Below are positions 1 to 7,543 of a stretch of 10,110 nt of DNA, in pieces. A program made the position numbers and the translations under genes. The notes below the pieces were generated by a model. The model saw only the letters and a program-made list of their open reading frames with translations, was not told where the DNA came from and ran no database searches. The stretch spans positions 1 through 10,110 of IMG/VR virus record IMGVR_UViG_2529293240_000015; one strand, given 5' to 3'. The DNA comes from a virus (Duplodnaviria; Heunggongvirae; Uroviricota; Caudoviricetes). Within the stretch, counting starts at the first letter, position 1. Every line of letters begins with the position of its first letter.

Positions 1-39
1 ATGTTTACGCTGGCGGAAACGGGTTAGCGTTTGCCCCAG
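1..39 (-). pseudogene. dpiA: dpiA (citB) response regulator, distal part of the insertion-disrupted gene (partial, continues beyond window start)
   Basis: Reverse complement of 39..1 translates LGQTLTRFRQRKH, continuing in frame the receiver-domain ORF interrupted at 8305 (...YERLG). Matches my recollection of E. coli DpiA (...ERLGQTLTRFRQRK...). Not verified by search. Confidence 0.75.
35..39. repeat. Left copy of 5-bp target-site duplication CCCAG flanking the Mu-like element
   Basis: CCCAG lies immediately outside the left phage end (TG at 40..41) and is repeated identically at 8305..8309 immediately outside the right end (CA at 8303..8304). A 5-bp duplication is the known Mu transposition signature. 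Confidence 0.85.
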
Positions 40-250
40 TGTATTGATTCACTTGAAGTACGAAAAAACCGGGAGAACATTGGATTATTCGGGATCTGAT
101 GGGATTAGATTTGGTGGGGCTTGCAAGCCTGTAGTACAAATTTTAGGCGTTAACCAATGAAACGCGAAAGATAGTAAAAAATTGCTTTTGTTTCATTGAA
201 AAAACGAAAACAAAAACACTATAAATCATTTCAATCATAGCTTCAAAAAA
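40..250 (+). other. Mu-type left end (attL) with transposase-binding repeats (L1-L3 region)
   Basis: Terminal 5'-TG; repeated TGxTTCAYT...CGAAA(A) motifs, e.g. TTGATTCACTTGAAGTACGAAAAAA near 44..68 and TGTTTCATTGAAAAAACGAAAAC near 199..221; matches recalled Mu left-end sequence almost base for base. Extent is approximate. Confidence 0.7.
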
Positions 251-375
251 CGTTCAAAACCGATAACAACCAGGCTGTCACCAAATGACTCATATCACAA
301 ATCAGCTCATGCCGTTTAGGTATGTTACATGTGTGATTATGTGAGGTTAAGTATGTTTTAGCTGGCTCATGGTTG

Positions 376-885
376 TTATACGGCTTTTTTCGCATCTTGT
401 GGTTCCAACAAAGGAGCTACAGGCTCTTCCTGTTTATGAACACCATACATTGACAAAATCTCTTGGCGAGTTTCTGGAGGTAATTTATGCAGCGCCAAAG
501 CTGTTTGTAGTGTTTGGCGATCAATACCCAGCGTTGCCAATAGGGTGTCAACGGAGATGGAGGGGCGTTCTTGCATTAATCCGGAAAGCCCATATTTAGC
601 CATGTTTAGCTCTATCTCTCGGACTTCATTTTCTCCTAGTTTATTGATTAACAGGGAGAACATTTTCAATGTATCAGCATTCATTTCTTCGATAGCAATT
701 TTTTGCATAGCCGGTATTGCCGGGATATATTCAACCCCAGGCCCGCGACGCCCTTCTTGTGAACGCTTCGGCCATCCTTCTTTCTTTGCTCGTTTATGCA
801 CCCCCTGTATTGTCCCAGGCATTCCATCCAGTTCAGTAATTTGTTTGGGTGTCATCCACTGGTTTATCTCATTTGCGCTTTTCAT
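376..885 (-). CDS. c: Mu-like phage repressor c (immunity repressor), 169 aa
   Basis: Divergent from ner, as in Mu. N-terminal motif LDGMPGTIQGVHKRAKKEGWPKRSQEGRRGPGVEY is paralogous to the N-terminus of the transposase in this same window ([33 protein letters not shown]); the repressor and MuA share this DNA-binding domain in Mu. Confidence 0.8.
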   Translation of the reverse strand: MKSANEINQWMTPKQITELDGMPGTIQGVHKRAKKEGWPKRSQEGRRGPGVEYIPAIPAMQKIAIEEMNADTLKMFSLLINKLGENEVREIELNMAKYGLSGLMQERPSISVDTLLATLGIDRQTLQTALALHKLPPETRQEILSMYGVHKQEEPVAPLLEPQDAKKAV

Positions 886-1047
886 AAACTAAGTTTACCA
901 GATTTATCTATATAAAAATCAATGGATTACAAAATAAACCACATCAACTGATATAAATCGATTGGGTTTATTTGGTTTATATGGCAATGTATAAAACAGA
1001 TAATCAAGACGAATTATTTGTTTTGATAACCCTTTATCATACGCAAT
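886..1047. promoter_or_regulatory. c/ner divergent operator and early promoter region (Mu O1-O3, Pe/Pc equivalent) with an IHF consensus match
   Basis: AT-rich 160-bp intergenic region between divergent c and ner; AATCAATGGATTA at 917..929 fits the IHF consensus WATCAANNNNTTR; repeated GGTTTAT motifs at about 975..995. Individual operators not delimited. Confidence 0.5.
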
Positions 1048-1302
1048 ATGGTTGGTGTGCGAAAGATGAGTAACGATTGGCATCGGGCCGACGTGATTGC
1101 GGCCCTCAAAAAAACAGGAACCCCTCTGGCAAAATTGTCCAGACGTTCAGGTTATTCAACCGGGACGCTTGCAAATGCATTAGTCAGGCCATGGCCTAAA
1201 GGTGAACGCATTATTGCTGACGCCTTAAACATGAAACCTGAGGAAATTTGGCCTAGTAGATATCTAAGGGATCACAATGAGAGAGTGGATATCAGCAATT
1301 GA
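1048..1302 (+). CDS. ner: Ner-like DNA-binding transcriptional regulator (Mu Ner / E. coli Nlp family)
   Basis: DWHRADVIAALKK...TLANAL..PWPKGERIIADAL..KPEEIWPSRY matches the Ner/Nlp family signature. True start may be the second ATG at 1066 (MSNDWHR...). Confidence 0.85.
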   Translation: MVGVRKMSNDWHRADVIAALKKTGTPLAKLSRRSGYSTGTLANALVRPWPKGERIIADALNMKPEEIWPSRYLRDHNERVDISN

Positions 1303-2912
1303 ATGCATGGGTTTATCTGGTTTACCTGGTTCATTAATGGGGGGTTCACAAAAGAGCTCAGAGAGAAGGATGGCTCAAGAGAAGAAGAGAAGGAATTAGA
1401 GGGGTTGCTTACGAATACCATATATCTTCTCTTCCTAACATTGCTCGAGCTGAAGTTTTGCTCCAACAAGGAAAATTTAAAACCAGTCAGGGATGTTTTG
1501 AAATCGCCCGCCCCACGCTGGAAGCTCATGATTATGATCGTGAGGCACTATGGAGCAAATGGGATAAAGCCAGCGATTCCCAGCGCAGCCTGGCTGAAAA
1601 ATGGTTGCCCTCAATTCAGGCCACAGACGAAATGCTGAACCAGGGGATTTCAACGAAAACGGCTTTTGCGACCGTTGCAGGGCATTACCAGGTCAGCGCA
1701 TCCACTTTGCGGGACAAGTATTACCAGGTACAGAAGTTTGCGAAGCCTGACTGGGCGGCTGCACTTGTTGATGGACGTGGAGCATCCCGTCGCAATGTTC
1801 ACAAAAGTGAATTTGACAAGGATGCCTGGCAGTTTCTGATTGCAGATTATCTGCGACCGGAAAAACCCGCCTTCCGCAAATGTTATGAGCGTCTGGAACT
1901 GGCAGCCCGCGAGCATGGCTGGAGTATTCCCTCCCGTGCCACGGCCTTTCGCCGGATTCAGCAACTGGACGAGGCAATGGTTGTTGCCTGTCGTGAAGGT
2001 GAACATGCACTGATGCATCTGATACCGGCACAGCAGCGAACTGTGGAACACCTGGACGCCATGCAGTGGATCAACGGCGACGGTTATCTGCATAACGTCT
2101 TTGTACGCTGGTTTAACGGTGATGTGATCCGTCCGAAAACATGGTTCTGGCAGGATGTGAAAACCCGAAAAATTCTGGGCTGGCGCTGCGATGTGAGCGA
2201 GAACATTGATTCAATTCGCCTCTCGTTCATGGATGTTGTGACTCGCTACAGTATCCCGGAGGATTTTCACATCACCATTGATAACACCCGTGGTGCTGCG
2301 AATAAATGGCTGACGGGAGGCGCGCCCAATCGCTACCGCTTTAAGGTAAAAGAGGACGATCCAAAAGGACTGTTTTTACTGATGGGTGCGAAAATGCACT
2401 GGACAAGCGTTGTTGCCGGTAAAGGCTGGGGCCAGGCAAAACCTGTTGAACGTGCTTTCGGTGTTGGTGGGCTTGAGGAATACGTTGATAAGCATCCGGC
2501 ACTGGCTGGCGCATATACGGGGCCAAATCCGCAGGCAAAACCTGATAACTATGGCGACCGCGCTGTTGATGCAGAGCTGTTTCTGAAAACCCTTGCCGAA
2601 GGTGTGGCGATGTTCAATGCCAGAACAGGCCGTGAAACAGAAATGTGCGGGGGCAAACTCTCGTTTGATGATGTTTTCGAGCGTGAATACGCCAGAACGA
2701 TTGTGCGTAAGCCAACCGAAGAACAAAAACGGATGCTGTTACTGCCTGCCGAGGCAGTGAACGTTTCACGCAAAGGCGAGTTTACGCTTAAAGTTGGCGG
2801 CTCCCTTAAAGGCGCGAAAAACGTTTATTACAACATGGCATTAATGAATGCCGGAGTGAAAAAAGTTGTGGTCAGATTTGATCCACAGCAGTTACACAGC
2901 ACGGTTTATTGA
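1277..2912 (+). pseudogene. A: Mu-like transposase A, pseudogene: +1 frameshift in G6 run at 1339..1344 and C-terminal truncation by IS600 at 2910
   Basis: ATG at 1277 gives [23 protein letters not shown] (cf. Mu MELWVSPKECANLPGLPKTSAGV); after GGGGGG the homologous frame shifts by one base ([10 protein letters not shown]...[27 protein letters not shown]...), continuing through the DDE core ([19 protein letters not shown]) to ...QQLHSTVY, where the TGA stop is supplied by the IS600 terminus. Mu A has about 100 further C-terminal residues (CYTLDGRF...) that are absent. Confidence 0.9.
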
Positions 2913-2973
2913 GGTAGCCTGAGTTTAACGGACACTCCTTCCTGAAATAGAATGGCATCAGAAGGAGCTAATA

Positions 2974-3276
2974 ATGAGCAGAAAAACCCAACGTTACTCT
3001 AAAGAGTTCAAAGCCGAAGCTGTCAGAACGGTTCTTGAAAATCAACTTTCGATCAGTGAAGGCGCTTCCCGATTATCTCTTCCTGAAGGCACTTTAGGAC
3101 AATGGGTTACCGCCGCCAGAAAAGGGCTCGGTACTCCTGGTTCCCGCACGGTGGCTGAACTGGAATCTGAAATTCTGCAACTGCGTAAGGCGTTAAATGA
3201 AGCTCGCCTTGAGCGAGATATATTAAAAAAAGCAACAGCGTATTTTGCACAGGAGTCGCTGAAAAATACGCGTTAA
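2974..3276 (+). CDS. IS600 OrfA (IS3-family transposase N-terminal, HTH/leucine-zipper protein)
   Basis: MSRKTQRYSKEFKAEAVRTVLENQLSISEGASRLSLPEGTLGQWV...; AGGAG Shine-Dalgarno at 2963..2967. Confidence 0.9.
   Translation: MSRKTQRYSKEFKAEAVRTVLENQLSISEGASRLSLPEGTLGQWVTAARKGLGTPGSRTVAELESEILQLRKALNEARLERDILKKATAYFAQESLKNTR
3225..3231 (+). other. IS600 programmed -1 ribosomal frameshift slippery run (A7 followed by G) joining orfA to orfB
   Basis: tta aaa aaa g in the orfA frame; shifting -1 here continues in the orfB frame (orfB is in frame 0, orfA in frame 1), giving the OrfAB fusion typical of IS3-family elements. Confidence 0.7.
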
Positions 3277-3311
3277 TCGAACAATGGCGACAACAATTTC
3301 CCATTGAAGCG

Positions 3312-4130
3312 ATGTGTCAGGTATTTGGTGTATCCAGGAGCGGTTATTACAACTGGGTACAGCATGAACCCTCAGACAGAAAACAAAGTGATGAGCGGCT
3401 AAAACTGGAGATTAAGGTGGCACATATCCGCACTCGCGAAACATATGGAACCCGGCGGCTCCAGACGGAGCTGGCAGAGAATGGCATCATCGTTGGTCGT
3501 GACCGACTGGCACGTCTTCGTAAGGAGCTAAGGCTACGCTGTAAGCAGAAACGCAAGTTCAGAGCGACTACGAACCCGAACCACAATCTGCCAGTTGCGC
3601 CAAATCTGCTGAACCAGACGTTCGCTCCTACAGCACCAAATCAGGTCTGGGTGGCGGACCTGACGTATGTTGCCACACAGGAGGGATGGTTGTACCTCGC
3701 TGGCATCAAAGATGTTTATACGTGCGAAATTGTCGGCTACGCCATGGGAGAGCGCATGACAAAAGAGCTGACAGGTAAAGCCCTGTTTATGGCGCTCAGG
3801 AGCCAGCGCCCACCTGCCGGGCTAATCCACCACTCTGATCGAGGTTCACAGTACTGCGCATACGATTACCGGGTCATACAGGAGCAGTTTGGTCTGAAAA
3901 CATCAATGTCGCGTAAAGGTAACTGTTACGACAACGCTCCGATGGAAAGCTTCTGGGGAACGCTGAAAAATGAGAGCCTGAGCCACTATCGTTTTAATAA
4001 CCGGGATGAAGCCATCTCAGTAATACGGGAATACATTGAGATTTTCTACAATCGTCAGCGTCGTCACTCTCGTCTGGGGAATATCTCCCCGGCAGCCTTC
4101 AGGGAAAAATATCATCAGATGGCTGCTTAA
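3312..4130 (+). CDS. IS600 OrfB (IS3-family DDE transposase catalytic domain; expressed as OrfAB fusion)
   Basis: ...QVWVADLTYV...IHHSDRGSQY...NAPMESFWGTLKNE... is the IS3-family integrase-like DDE core; the reading frame is open upstream of the 3312 ATG back to the slippery site. Confidence 0.9.
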   Translation: MCQVFGVSRSGYYNWVQHEPSDRKQSDERLKLEIKVAHIRTRETYGTRRLQTELAENGIIVGRDRLARLRKELRLRCKQKRKFRATTNPNHNLPVAPNLLNQTFAPTAPNQVWVADLTYVATQEGWLYLAGIKDVYTCEIVGYAMGERMTKELTGKALFMALRSQRPPAGLIHHSDRGSQYCAYDYRVIQEQFGLKTSMSRKGNCYDNAPMESFWGTLKNESLSHYRFNNRDEAISVIREYIEIFYNRQRRHSRLGNISPAAFREKYHQMAA

Positions 4131-4173
4131 AAAAAGAACAAATGGTAGTGTCCGCTATTGCCAGTACACCTCA

Positions 4174-4890
4174 AACAATAAGGTCATTACAGATACAGGT
4201 TGCGGAAATATTTGTCTTGCAGGTGCTGTGGTGGAAGTTACTGGCACTCGCGGCGCAATGACCATACGCGTTACTACGCCAAGTACGTCCAGCGGCGGCG
4301 GAATCACTAACGCTCAATTCACTTATATTAATCATGGTGATGCTTATGCTCCTGGCTGGCGAAGAGACTACAATACGAAAAACCAGCAGCCTGCATTTGC
4401 TTTAGGGCAAACAGGAAGCAGGGTTGCAAATGATAAAGCTGTTGGCTGGAACTGGAATAGCGGTGTTTATGATGCAAATATCAGCGGTGCATCAACATTA
4501 ATCCTCCACTTCAATAAGAATACGGGGAGCTGCCCTGCTGTACAGTTCCGTGTGAATTATAAGAACGGCGGTATTTTTTATCGTTCAGCGCGTGATGGTT
4601 ATGGATTTGAGGCTGGCTGGTCAGAGTTTTACACCACAACACGCAAGCCATCAGCGAGAGATGTTGGCGCATATACGCAGGCAGAATGTAACTCAAGGTT
4701 TATTACAGGTATTCGCCTTGGTGGTCTGTCATCTGTTCGGACATGGAATGGTCCCGGCTGGTCTGACAGGTCAGGTTATGTTGTTACCGGTTCCGTTAAC
4801 TCAAACAGAGATGAACTAATTGATACAACTCAGGCAAGGCCAATTCAGTATTGCATTAATGGGACGTGGTATAACGCGGGGAGTATTTAA
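4174..4890 (+). pseudogene. S: Tail-fibre variable C-terminal region (Mu S variable part equivalent), 5'-truncated at the IS600 boundary
   Basis: Frame is open from inside IS600 (the track ORF at 4036 is a chimera); C-terminus ...RPIQYCINGTWYNAGSI parallels the end of the minus-strand cassette (...[17 protein letters not shown]); immediately followed by a tail-fibre assembly gene. No phage-derived start or constant region is present. Confidence 0.7.
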
Positions 4891-4892
4891 CG

Positions 4893-5426
4893 ATGATGCA
4901 CTTAAAAAACATTTCTGCTGGTAATCCTGAAACAAAAGAGCAATACCAGCTAACGAAACAATTTAACATCAAATGGCTTTATACAGAGGATGGGAAAAAC
5001 TGGTATGAGGAACAAAAGAACTTTCAGCCTGATACGTTGAAAATGGTCTATGACCACAACGGCGTTATTATTTGTATTGAAAAGGATGTTTCAGCAATTA
5101 ATCCGGAAGGCGCAAGCGTCGTTGAGGTTCCTGATATTACAGCAAATCACCGGGCTGATATTTCAGGTAAATGGATGTTCAAAGATGGCATAGTGATAAA
5201 GCGAACTTATACCGGGGAAGAGCAGAGGCAACAAGTGGAAAATGAAAAGCAAAGCCTGTTGCAACTTGTCAGGGATAAAACCCAGCTATGGGACTCACAG
5301 CTACGGCTGGGCATCATTTCCGCCGGGAATAAGCAGAAATTAACCGAGTGGATGCTCTACGCGCAGAAGGTCGAATCCACAGACACCTCCAGTCTGCCAG
5401 TAACGTTTCCCGAACAACCAGAATGA
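4893..5426 (+). CDS. U: Tail-fibre assembly protein (Mu U-like chaperone), 177 aa
   Basis: MMHLKNISAGN...DGKNWYEEQKNFQPDT...[28 protein letters not shown] is the Tfa/U family signature; starts 2 nt after the tail-fibre stop. Confidence 0.8.
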   Translation: MMHLKNISAGNPETKEQYQLTKQFNIKWLYTEDGKNWYEEQKNFQPDTLKMVYDHNGVIICIEKDVSAINPEGASVVEVPDITANHRADISGKWMFKDGIVIKRTYTGEEQRQQVENEKQSLLQLVRDKTQLWDSQLRLGIISAGNKQKLTEWMLYAQKVESTDTSSLPVTFPEQPE

Positions 5427-5431
5427 GAGAA

Positions 5432-5457
5432 GGCCCGCTATCGGGCCTTAATTTTTA
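5432..5457 (+). terminator. Rho-independent terminator hairpin between the convergent U and U' genes
   Basis: GGCCCG-ctat-CGGGCC stem-loop (5432..5447) followed by TTAATTTTTA on the plus strand, directly after the U stop codon. Confidence 0.6.
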
Positions 5458-5982
5458 CTCTGGTTTTTGTGGCCATTCTGGCTTTGCCGTATCCACACGG
5501 CTGACCAGAACACTGTAGCGTTCCCATGACTCCAGTCGTGCGCGTTCCTCATCTGTTGCCATATTCAGCCTGACAGAGCGCTCCAGCGGCTGGATGACTG
5601 ATTCAGCTTCGGAAAGCAATGCGGCTTTTTGTGATTCGGCCTGTTGCTGCTGTTCGTCTGCCGTATAAATCCGCTTAACCACAGCTCCGTCCTTAAACAT
5701 CCACTTCCCGGAATCATCGGCACGACGATTTGCTGTTATATCGGGGACCTCAACGACGCTAAAGCCTTCAGGATTAAGCGTGGAGGCATCTTTAGTGATG
5801 GCGACAATAATATTATTTTCATCGTAAACAATCTTTATTGTATCTGGCTGAAAGTTCTTCACTTCCCCATACCAGTTTTTTCCGTCTTCTGTCCACAACC
5901 AGATTACGTCAAAATTCTTTGTTAATTCGTACTGTTCCAGTGTTTTAGCGTTACCCGCTTTAATGTTCTTTAAGTGCATCAT
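5455..5982 (-). CDS. U': Tail-fibre assembly protein (Mu U'-like chaperone), 175 aa
   Basis: Paralogue of the plus-strand U ([11 protein letters not shown]...[16 protein letters not shown]...[19 protein letters not shown]), encoded convergently, as in the Mu invertible G segment. Confidence 0.8.
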
Positions 5983-5983
5983 A

Positions 5984-6970
5984 TTAAACGCTCGCTACAT
6001 TATACCAAGTGCCATTTATATACTTTTGAATCGGTCTGTAATAAACACCCGCAATATTATCGGCAGAGTTGGAACCTGTATCCTGAACATTAATACCAGA
6101 CAATACATGACCTGAAGGGCACTGAAAATTCCATGTTTGCCAGTTGTTCACTCCATAATATTGCTGTGAACCAAGTCGAACATCTTTCACATATCTGGAA
6201 TCAAAATTGCCATAGTTGCCGGGAATAACTTGCGAACCGCAAAGCCAGTTCCCGTTATTATCCATGTACGCCTGACCATCGGTGCCATTGGCTGTCCTTG
6301 AGTTATTAATCATGTAGATGCCAAATTGCCTATTCCCCAGCCCACCAATTACGAATTTACGGTCGGTATGGTCCTGGCGAAGCAATGCCTGCGCACCATC
6401 GTTGGATACCGCATTACGGCCCATAATAACGTTCTGGTCACGCATATGAATCCACATGCCTGTACTGCTGTTAATTAAAAAACGGTTTGTAAATATATCT
6501 CCTGTAACAACCAGACCATGCCCCATGCTTATCCGGCCAGTTCTGAGATTAAGCGTAAAGGGGCGTAGTGGCCCTATATTACCATTTTCCCCTTCATTCT
6601 CTCGTGTAGGGATGATATGCAGGCATTCTTCAGAACGACGAAAAATGGCACCAAAAGATGAATTAAATATTCTCAGTGCATTGACCGTCGATATTTTTAC
6701 TTCACTGCTGAAAAGGGCTTTAACAAGAACATACAGAGCATCCCATTTAAGATTCATCAGGTCTTTAACCCGGCCGCCAGTGAGGTGGTGTCTCCATTTG
6801 AAATACTCATTGCCGTTGTCGCCTGTTTCAAACCACATGTATGAATCAGTATCGCTGTCGGCATCATTTTTAAATCCAATCTTTGCCCAGTCAGTATTCC
6901 GAATCCAGGCAAGGATTGAGTCGTTTTCAAAAGTAAGTCCACCGGACAACGTATCGCCATTTTTTTGCAC
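5984..6970 (-). CDS. S': Alternative tail-fibre variable cassette (Mu S' variable part equivalent); not a self-standing gene in the intact phage
   Basis: C-terminus ...[19 protein letters not shown]; stop is 1 nt from the U' start; the reading frame stays open upstream through the gix-like site (to at least 7043). In Mu this cassette is only expressed after inversion fuses it to the constant part of S. The track start at 6970 is a GTG. Confidence 0.7.
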
Positions 6971-6995
6971 GGCGTTACCAGCCTTGTTTACCGTT

Positions 6996-7021
6996 TCCTG
7001 TAAACCGAGGGGCCGTTTCTG
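6996..7021. other. gix-like recombination site at the right border of the tail-fibre cassette region (only one half-site recognisable)
   Basis: TTCCTGTAAACCGAGG at 6996..7011 matches the Gin crossover site as I recall it (TTCCTGTAAACC-GA-GGTTTTGGATAA); the following half (GGCCGTTTCTGG) does not match. No partner site was found at the left border near 4174. Confidence 0.45.
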
Positions 7022-7063
7022 GCCTGCATGGCATGATTTCCGCTTTTAAACGGGGAATTCAGC

Positions 7064-7261
7064 GTGCTGATTGGCTATGTAAGGGTATCAACAAATGACC
7101 AGAATACAGACCTGCAACGAAACGCTCTTGTTTGTGCAGGATGTGAACAAATATTTGAAGATAAATTAAGCGGAACAAGGACAGACCGACCGGGATTAAA
7201 ACGTGCTTTAAAGCGCCTTCAAAAAGGAACGCATATAGAAAACGACGATCGAATCAATTAA
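7064..7261 (+). pseudogene. gin: gin DNA invertase remnant: in-frame internal deletion leaving 65 aa (N-terminal 55 aa plus C-terminal THIENDDRIN)
   Basis: MLIGYVRVSTNDQNTDLQRNALVCAGCEQIFEDKLSGTRTDRPGLKRALKRLQKG matches the Gin/Hin serine-recombinase N-terminus including the catalytic Ser (VRVST); it then joins directly to the recalled Gin C-terminal tail (..HIENDDRIN). About 128 codons of catalytic and HTH domains are missing, relative to a roughly 190-aa Gin. Confidence 0.85.
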
Positions 7262-7354
7262 ATCGATCTGTATTACCGATCGATTATGTCCCGATAACCA
7301 CACCCGACTGATGAGATTTTTTAAGATAACGGCGAATTGATGCAAGGAGGTGAA
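7247..7354 (+). promoter_or_regulatory. mom operon regulatory region: three GATC (Dam) sites including an 8-bp inverted repeat, upstream of com
   Basis: GATC at 7247..7250, 7265..7268 and 7278..7281; AATCGATC (7261..7268) and GATCGATT (7278..7285) form an inverted repeat. In Mu this cluster is the Dam-methylation-sensitive OxyR-binding region of Pmom. GGAGG Shine-Dalgarno at 7346..7350. Confidence 0.65.
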
Positions 7355-7543
7355 ATGAAATCAATTCGCTGTAAGAACTGCAACAAACTGTTATTTAAAG
7401 CGGATTCCTTTGATCACATTGAAATCAGGTGTCCGCGTTGCAAACGTCACATCATAATGCTGAATGCCTGCGAGCATCCCACGGAGAAACATTGTGGGAA
7501 AAGAGAAGAAATCACGCATTCTGACGAAACCGTGCGTTATTGA
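7355..7543 (+). CDS. com: Com, zinc-finger translational activator of mom (62 aa)
   Basis: [61 protein letters not shown]; a Cys4 protein essentially identical to my recollection of Mu Com. Start chosen at the ATG preceded by GGAGG rather than the track ORF start at 7337. Confidence 0.85.

Follow-up and report, generated by a model that had tools for sequence, protein, structure and literature searches.

Why does a Mu-like prophage that can no longer transpose by itself still carry a repressor, a ner gene and the control region between them, and against which phages could such a repressor act? These questions are raised by the left end of a 10,110-nt stretch of DNA (hereafter the window) that corresponds to a chromosomal segment of Shigella flexneri SFJ17B (AFOW01000008.1, GCA_000217895.2). 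A sequence-only reading of this region had described an intact immunity module in a non-transposable remnant, had suggested a D108/SfMu-like immunity type and had offered immunity against superinfecting phages as a selective reason for retention. We now favor, at a probability of roughly 70%, a different combination: a complete lysogeny and early-control module of a third immunity group, carried by a young, non-autonomous remnant in dpiA and retained because the remnant is young rather than through demonstrable selection.

A defective Mu-like prophage in dpiA

In S. flexneri SFJ17B, dpiA is interrupted by 8.3 kb of defective Mu-like prophage (Table 1). Fusing the flanks (1-39 and 8310-8420) via a single CCCAG gave the uninterrupted E. 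coli dpiA sequence, with 100% identity over 150 bp. The presence of CCCAG at both junctions, together with the reconstituted gene, therefore shows that the element inserted by simple transposition and left the 5-bp duplication that Mu typically makes. At the left end, where the transposase-binding repeats were located as RAARYRCGAAAR sites, window positions 40-484 are 91.3-91.5% identical at the DNA level to Mu 1-447; the Mu right end terminates at 8304.

Table 1. Coordinates of the prophage, its flanks and the elements of its control region (window positions; a period marks features for which no strand is assigned)
Feature	Position	Strand	Content or basis
C-terminal side of host dpiA	1-39		window left flank
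Left target-site duplication copy, CCCAG	35..39	.	junction sequence
Mu-type left end (attL)	40..375	+	three transposase-binding repeats: L1 55-66, L2 159-170, L3 199-210
c-type repressor gene, 169 aa, full length	376..885	-	ORF, Pfam, PDB, alignment
Candidate O1-like operator cluster	861..907	.	putative; RRTTTAT at 861-867 (+), 884-890 (-), 901-907 (+)
Family-invariant block CATAAACTAAGTTTACC	882-898		inside the O1-like cluster
Palindrome AAACTAAGTTT	886-896		part of the family-invariant block
IHF consensus site AATCAATGGATTA	917..929	+	between the two RRTTTAT clusters
Candidate O2-like operator cluster	934..980	.	putative; RRTTTAT at 934-940 (-), 953-959 (-), 965-971 (+), 974-980 (+)
Pe-like early promoter	976..1004	+	consensus match: TTTATA, 17-bp spacer, GATAAT
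Candidate Ner operator	993..1024	.	inverted repeat AAAACAGATAATC-N6-AATTATTTGTTTT
Pc-like repressor promoter	1036..1063	-	consensus match: TTCGCA, 16-bp spacer, TATGAT
ner, 78 aa, full length	1066..1302	+	3´ end overlaps start of A
Transposase A remnant	1277..2912	+	codons 1-545 of about 663
IS600, full length	2913..4176	+	terminates A, adjoins internal deletion
Right part of prophage	4177..8304	+	G segment, gin, com, mom, attR
G segment			G(-) orientation, frozen; truncated S'v, U', U, Sv
U'	4893-5426		
U	5455-5982	-	
Sv	5984-6970	-	
gin	7064-7261		379-bp internal deletion
mom	7464-8189		
R1-R3 repeats of attR	8238-8289		transposase-binding repeats
Right target-site duplication copy, CCCAG	8305..8309	.	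followed by N-terminal part of dpiA, then dpiB

The damage to the remnant consists of three large events, and small-scale decay was seen nowhere in the element. The DNA between the end of A and the interior of the G segment is absent; this deletion covers B through the constant part of S, and the G segment lacks its left boundary. The IS600 copy adjoining the deletion is 99.8% identical over 1264 bp to annotated copies, and the A gene beyond the variable block described below is 97-98% identical at the DNA level to that of Mu, D108 and SfMu. U', U, com and mom are all intact, with lengths that match those of Mu.

We also noted an extra G in a six-G run (1339-1344) that frameshifts A in the SFJ17B assembly. 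It was absent in 16 of the 16 other S. flexneri loci compared and may be a strain-specific change or a homopolymer sequencing error; being confined to one assembly and to a homopolymer run, it was rejected as evidence of decay. Only one public contig, AFOW01000008.1, carries the truncated transposase product of 1458-2912.

The description of the element as a non-transposable remnant can be kept in part. The prophage cannot transpose alone, A being truncated by IS600 and B through S lost, but both ends retain three transposase-binding repeats each and the 5-bp target duplication is intact. The element is thus non-autonomous rather than intrinsically immobile.

The c-ner module and its immunity type

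The c gene lies at the left end and is oriented divergently from ner-A. Its product matched the Pfam family HTH_Tnp_Mu_1 (PF02316 family, E 4.5e-12), PHROG 7148 (transcriptional repressor) and, among PDB structures, the DNA-binding domain of the Mu repressor (1G4D, E 2e-10) and the I-alpha domain of MuA (1TNS, E 6e-7). The N-terminus of the repressor resembles that of the transposase encoded by the same element (GxPGxxxGVHKRAxxEGWxKR), a likeness that is a hallmark of Mu-type control regions, in which the two proteins share the operator/enhancer. A truncated repressor was considered and excluded. The 27-aa shortfall relative to the 196-aa Mu c is made up of N-terminal and internal gaps, the alignment with Mu and D108 c runs end to end through the terminal KKAV, and 169 aa is the length of every close homologue from apparently complete prophages. 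All of the family-invariant repressor residues are present in the S. flexneri product.

The Ner product matched HTH_35 (PF13693, E 5e-29) and 1NEQ (E 3.5e-24), and is 99% identical to the Ner of a prophage in E. coli UMNF18, both proteins having 78 aa. We rejected an 84-aa ner ORF starting at 1048 (listed as 1048..1302). Codon 1060-1062 is CGA in the window, compared with an in-frame TGA in intact relatives, and the ner start is therefore the ATG at 1066. Together with a divergent control region of 180 bp (886..1065) that is about 90% identical to its counterpart in the complete UMNF18 prophage, these results bear out the earlier statements that both regulators are full length and that the region between them is present.

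Within the control region, sites of the form RRTTTAT lie in two clusters on either side of an IHF consensus site. Seven occur in 850-1065 compared with 0.65 expected, a count reached in 0 of 5000 dinucleotide shuffles of this AT-rich stretch, and the stricter GRTTTAT occurs 12 times across the window compared with 3.2 expected, with six of the 12 within 861-980; these enrichment figures are inflated, the motif having been defined post hoc from this control region. We detected no RRTTTAT cluster elsewhere in the window. Of nine relatives compared, 8-9 retain the sites at 861, 884, 953, 965 and 974, and the sites at 965-971 and 974-980 form a 9-bp tandem unit. The IHF site, also conserved in the relatives, is the only perfect match to WATCAANNNNTTR (IHF consensus) in the 10-kb window.

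The Pe-like promoter overlaps the right-hand cluster and faces the Pc-like promoter, which is located directly upstream of ner. Between the two, 42-73 bp upstream of ner, is the candidate Ner operator. In the intact relatives it forms a perfect 13-6-13 inverted repeat, the arms of which are conserved while the spacer varies; two right-arm positions (1012 and 1018) are altered in S. flexneri. The -35 hexamer of the Pc-like promoter is TTCACA in intact relatives versus TTCGCA here, owing to a change at 1060. We also considered, and rejected, the idea that the hypervariable segment discussed below encodes a conserved hairpin, of RNA or of DNA, in the leader of c. Minimum-free-energy folds differed among the relatives and shared only short head-to-head ATAAAY...RTTTAT arms, for which symmetry of protein binding is the simpler reading. 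The control region thus retains the Mu architecture, with a candidate O1-IHF-O2 arrangement, Pe- and Pc-like promoters and a candidate Ner repeat.

We asked how such a module would operate. The Mu repressor binds operator clusters across an IHF-induced bend, and Mu Ner acts on an inverted repeat. By analogy, the repressor made from the leftward promoter would bind the RRTTTAT repeats on both sides of the bend and would thereby shut the rightward early promoter driving ner and the truncated A. Ner, if ever expressed, would bind the 13-6-13 inverted repeat and damp both promoters. In trans, the repressor would silence the early promoter, and occupy the enhancer, of any same-group phage entering the cell, while Mu, D108 and SfMu would probably not be silenced. 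Which bases act as operators, that c is expressed and that immunity follows are inferences, whereas the identity and full length of the genes, the architecture, the distinct immunity group and the insertion history are read directly from sequence.

Comparison of the proteins did not favor the D108/SfMu-like type that had been suggested. Identity to D108/SfMu is no more than 28-30% for the repressor and 53% for Ner; by comparison, SfMu c and D108 c are 90% identical to each other in our alignment and 89% as reported in PMC4406740. We therefore rejected membership in the D108/SfMu group. The Mu group fared similarly, with 35-41% identity for c and 59% for Ner. Only the c DNA at 376-484, encoding the C-terminal ~36 aa, is Mu-like, while the remainder of c is of a new type, and no DNA similarity to Mu, D108 or SfMu was detectable from 485 to about 1457. 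This variable block is the same mosaic block that separates Mu from D108 and comprises most of c, the operators, ner and the N-terminus of A.

The candidate operator motifs differ as well. CTTTTYNR, which we take to be the Mu repressor consensus after checking it against the Mu and D108 sequences, occurs six times in the control region of Mu versus 0 times here. The counts of RRTTTAT in the respective control regions are seven here, seven in UMNF18, 0 in Mu and two in D108. This exchange of motifs fits a distinct operator specificity and, with the 35-41% c identity and the lack of DNA similarity across 485-1457, led us to reject the Mu immunity group.

Closer relatives were found in bacterial chromosomes. 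In E. coli UMNF18 and in Salmonella enterica, repressors that are 85-87% identical and have the same 169 aa are encoded by Mu-like prophages, which are apparently complete (full A, B, kil and gam) and occupy chromosomal sites other than dpiA; a further complete prophage holds a 60% identical relative. With the repressor, Ner and control-region identities given above, and with shared site positions, the module belongs to this unnamed UMNF18/Salmonella group. Among 50,697 phage genomes, no repressor was closer than those of Mu, D108 and SfMu, and no isolate of this group was present. By sequence, the module thus belongs to a third immunity group, apart from Mu and D108/SfMu. Mu-related remnants in S. 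flexneri are known from Southern blots, and SfMu is a known Mu-like phage of this species, of the D108 type (PMC4406740). A literature search yielded no paper that deals specifically with this remnant, with its expression or with a third type of Mu immunity.

Retention and variation of the module in S. flexneri

One explanation for the intact module is that natural selection keeps it, the resident repressor shielding S. flexneri against superinfection by phages of its own immunity type. Immunity in trans is mechanistically plausible, and laboratory mini-Mu c+ elements confer it. Immunity from defective, 'grounded' prophages is moreover an accepted general idea (PMC6379469), and a selective agent could exist, since E. 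coli and Salmonella harbor complete prophages of this group. One exact repressor sequence also dominates in S. flexneri, being present in thousands of assemblies, with 6687 assembly-index blocks and at least 1000 contigs, compared with at most 42 contigs for each of the variants, some of which are shortened. The twelve S. flexneri chromosomes sampled share attL-c-ner-A'-IS600, followed by a different phage remnant. Between SFJ17B and this main lineage we found 0 differences in c (510 bp) and ner (237 bp) while A' has four substitutions, a pattern compatible with purifying selection.

The lack of differences carries no statistical weight, however, because only about two would be expected in c and ner together at the remnant background rate of about 0.26%, the probability of finding none being about 0.15. 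In addition, an exact protein match was the criterion by which the S. flexneri loci were collected, and amino-acid changes therefore cannot appear among them; with a divergence of about 0.3%, within-Shigella variation was unusable as a test of selection. Relative to the alleles of intact prophages, dN/dS was 0.17-0.21 for c and 0.03 for ner, values that mostly reflect evolution of the phage and not of the remnant.

Other observations also argue against selection for immunity. In two complete S. flexneri chromosomes (L026 and L028), window positions 313-2909, containing c-ner-A', have been deleted next to IS600. Some lineages that descend from the insertion have therefore lost the block, which is dispensable. 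At low frequency, c alleles are truncated or frameshifted, sequenced phages include no isolate of this group, and SfMu, the Mu-like phage known from S. flexneri, is of the D108 type. Finally, the intactness of c and ner does not exceed chance expectation, U, U', com and mom being likewise intact. Given that all small genes are intact and that the damage is limited to three large events, intactness is what a young remnant shows. Of the selective explanation, the plausibility of trans-immunity thus stands, but as the reason for retention we consider it unlikely.

A second explanation is that the ORFs are intact but the immunity switch is dead, either because promoter or operator changes have silenced c or because the element rests in a stable Ner-on/c-off state. 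Changes specific to S. flexneri, which affect the candidate Ner site as well as the Pc-like -35 hexamer, are in line with this, as is the O2/Pe segment, with at least nine mutational events in 17 S. flexneri loci, including loss of a tandem unit. The resident circuit may accordingly be partly degraded or retuned through the changes at 1012, 1018 and 1060 and in the variable O2-like segment. In double-negative switches, of which lambda anti-immunity is an example, the antirepressor state can be maintained by a remnant that is unable to kill its host, and a stable Ner-on, repressor-off state is conceivable here, with ner intact and a remnant that cannot kill the cell. The promoter-like hexamers, the IHF site and most of the RRTTTAT sites have been kept, however, as have the family-invariant repressor residues, and the 9-bp deletion takes out precisely a single repeat unit, with a similar -35 hexamer formed anew. 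A switch that no longer gives immunity appears improbable to us.

The same segment accounts for most of the variation among the S. flexneri copies. It spans 82 bp (945-1026), covering the right-hand cluster and the -35 hexamer of the early promoter, with substitutions at 945, 958, 960, 961, 964, 965, 975 and 1026, and the main lineage, which has 964T and 1026G, has lost one of two tandem 9-bp GGTTTATNT units. The density of variation is ~20x that of other Mu DNA (8/82 versus 13/2791; Fisher p = 5e-8, for a segment chosen post hoc). Comparison with outgroups placed changes in both lineages, and these were absent as alleles from the relatives sampled. Several of the changes lie within the spacer of the head-to-head site pair, and some raise the symmetry of a quasi-palindrome centred at 952/953. 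Possible causes are a mutational hotspot (slippage or quasi-palindrome template switching) or selection on operator or promoter strength.

It is tempting to combine these findings into a functional third group, heteroimmune to Mu and D108/SfMu, whose 945-1026 segment has undergone recurrent adaptive change in S. flexneri. If this were so, recurrent independent mutation and the missing repeat unit would adjust how strongly the repressor, Ner or truncated A is expressed, perhaps in a conflict with superinfecting phages of the Mu kind that could otherwise mobilise this end-intact 'natural mini-Mu'. We regard this combined proposal as quite doubtful. Ner-family proteins with host roles exist, and the Ner-like EnrR repressor was the second PDB match of Ner, but recruitment of c and/or ner as host regulators with a function unrelated to phage immunity had no direct support and is very improbable, given that the block is deleted in some strains and that the window holds no RRTTTAT cluster outside the control region. 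As evidence for the domestication of a prophage repressor, the module is weak.

The reading we prefer, a third-group module on a young remnant, corrects the assignment of immunity. This widespread S. flexneri remnant is not expected to protect against SfMu or Mu; protection would be expected only against a Mu-like group that has not yet been isolated and is known from E. coli and Salmonella prophages. It also provides a third natural specificity set, consisting of a repressor DNA-binding domain, a transposase I-alpha domain, operators/enhancer, and Ner with its site, which could help in studying the co-evolution of paired repressor and transposase specificity in Mu-like phages.

Comparison with known systems

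The module resembles that of Mu in gene order and orientation at the left end, in the folds of its two regulators (1G4D for the repressor DNA-binding domain, 1NEQ for Ner) and in the similarity between the N-termini of repressor and transposase. In Mu, an IHF site, TATCAACGCGTTA, lies at the equivalent place between two CTTTTYNR clusters, and a 12-6-12 inverted repeat, with a 6-bp spacer like that of the candidate repeat here, lies at the corresponding place upstream of ner. The whole left end and the last ~36 codons of c are about 91% identical at the DNA level. It differs from Mu in its repressor, which is 27 aa shorter and of low identity, and in its Ner, which has a longer C-terminus overlapping A.

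With D108 and SfMu the module shares its architecture, a similar repressor length (174 aa in those phages) and similar mosaic boundaries, the variable block again spanning c, the operators, ner and the N-terminus of A. The D108 Ner site, CCGTGAGCTAC-N8-GTAGCTCACGG (11-8-11), differs from the candidate site here, as do the D108 c and Ner sequences. We take the 12-6-12 repeat of Mu and the 11-8-11 repeat of D108 to be the Ner sites of these phages, having checked both against the Mu and D108 sequences.

The closest likeness is to the UMNF18 and Salmonella prophages, whose repressors (WP_000842767-type, 'DNA-binding protein') have a near-identical DNA-binding domain and whose control regions have the same site positions; the Shigella copy differs in being defective and in having control-region changes of its own. 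As a non-autonomous element that keeps its ends and its repressor, it also resembles cryptic ('grounded') prophages and mini-Mu c+ elements, for which immunity in trans is the textbook behaviour (PMC6379469 for prophages), but it differs from those that confer immunity in that the block is dispensable in some S. flexneri strains. Overall, the module is a mostly ordinary member of the Mu-type c/ner control systems, with a new specificity in a well-known kind of circuit.

Remnant architecture and state of the right part

The remnant has inserted into dpiA (citB), a response-regulator gene that is thereby cut in two, and the frame of the adjoining sensor kinase gene, dpiB, is open up to the end of the window. 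Of S, the constant part has been lost, as has the left boundary of the G segment, which is fixed in the G(-) orientation; the reading frames of U', U and the Sv part remain open. A 379-bp internal deletion leaves gin with a 65-aa product, and 623 S. flexneri contigs carry this same shortened gene. It is also present on contig L033, which retains the tape-measure, baseplate and full S genes, indicating that the gin deletion is older than the large IS600-associated deletion. The DNA modification genes com and mom have kept their full length, with 96% identity to those of Mu, a degree of preservation equal to that of c and ner.

Coordinates of the features discussed
Feature	Window position	Other position
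Host flanks (dpiA, dpiB)	1-39 and 8305-10110	
L3 region	199-210	
One-A difference	206	
Deletion of c, ner and A' (L026, L028)	313-2909	
attL-IS600 junction, L026		L026 5333/5334
attL-IS600 junction, L028		L028 5338/5339
Invariant block	882-898	
Hypervariable segment	945-1026	
Centre of quasi-palindrome	952/953	
Run of six G	1339-1344	
Second segment absent (L026, L028)	4175-4435	
G segment	4177-7010	
Additional DNA (L026, L028)	near 6220	
gin	7064-7261	
com and mom	7337-8189	

Loss, disruption and rearrangement around c, ner and A'

In the complete S. flexneri chromosomes CP054892 and CP066809 (loci L026 and L028, respectively), c, ner and A' have been deleted and attL is joined straight to IS600. 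Both loci also lack a second, shorter segment and carry additional DNA farther to the right. Elsewhere it is the repressor itself that is altered: the rare allele P0005 has unrelated sequence in place of residues 25-52, as would be consistent with a double frameshift, and demonstrates the existence of disrupted c alleles. In 12 S. flexneri chromosomes (L016-L025, L005 and L006), representing the main lineage, the A'::IS600 junction leads not into the G segment but into inverted head genes from a different, non-Mu phage (portal_3, Mu_F-like and major capsid), which suggests an IS600-mediated rearrangement. The collinear arrangement, A'::IS600 and then the G segment, is kept in SFJ17B. That assembly differs from other strains by two indels, an extra G, seen in SFJ17B only, that frameshifts A and, in the L3 region, a difference of one A; as both lie in homopolymers, they may be sequencing errors of the 2011 assembly.

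Variable and invariant parts of the control region

Among the 17 otherwise near-identical S. flexneri loci, variation in the control region is concentrated in one segment, with at least eight substitution sites and one deletion of a 9-bp repeat unit, at a density ~20 times that of the remaining Mu DNA. Some of these changes raise the symmetry of a quasi-palindrome. The block CATAAACTAAGTTTACC shows no change across the nine members of the family, of which the 60% relative is one, and contains the palindrome AAACTAAGTTT immediately upstream of the c start codon. This block could be an operator element or could act in translational control of c; it has the motif CTAAGT in common with the Mu Ner half-site.
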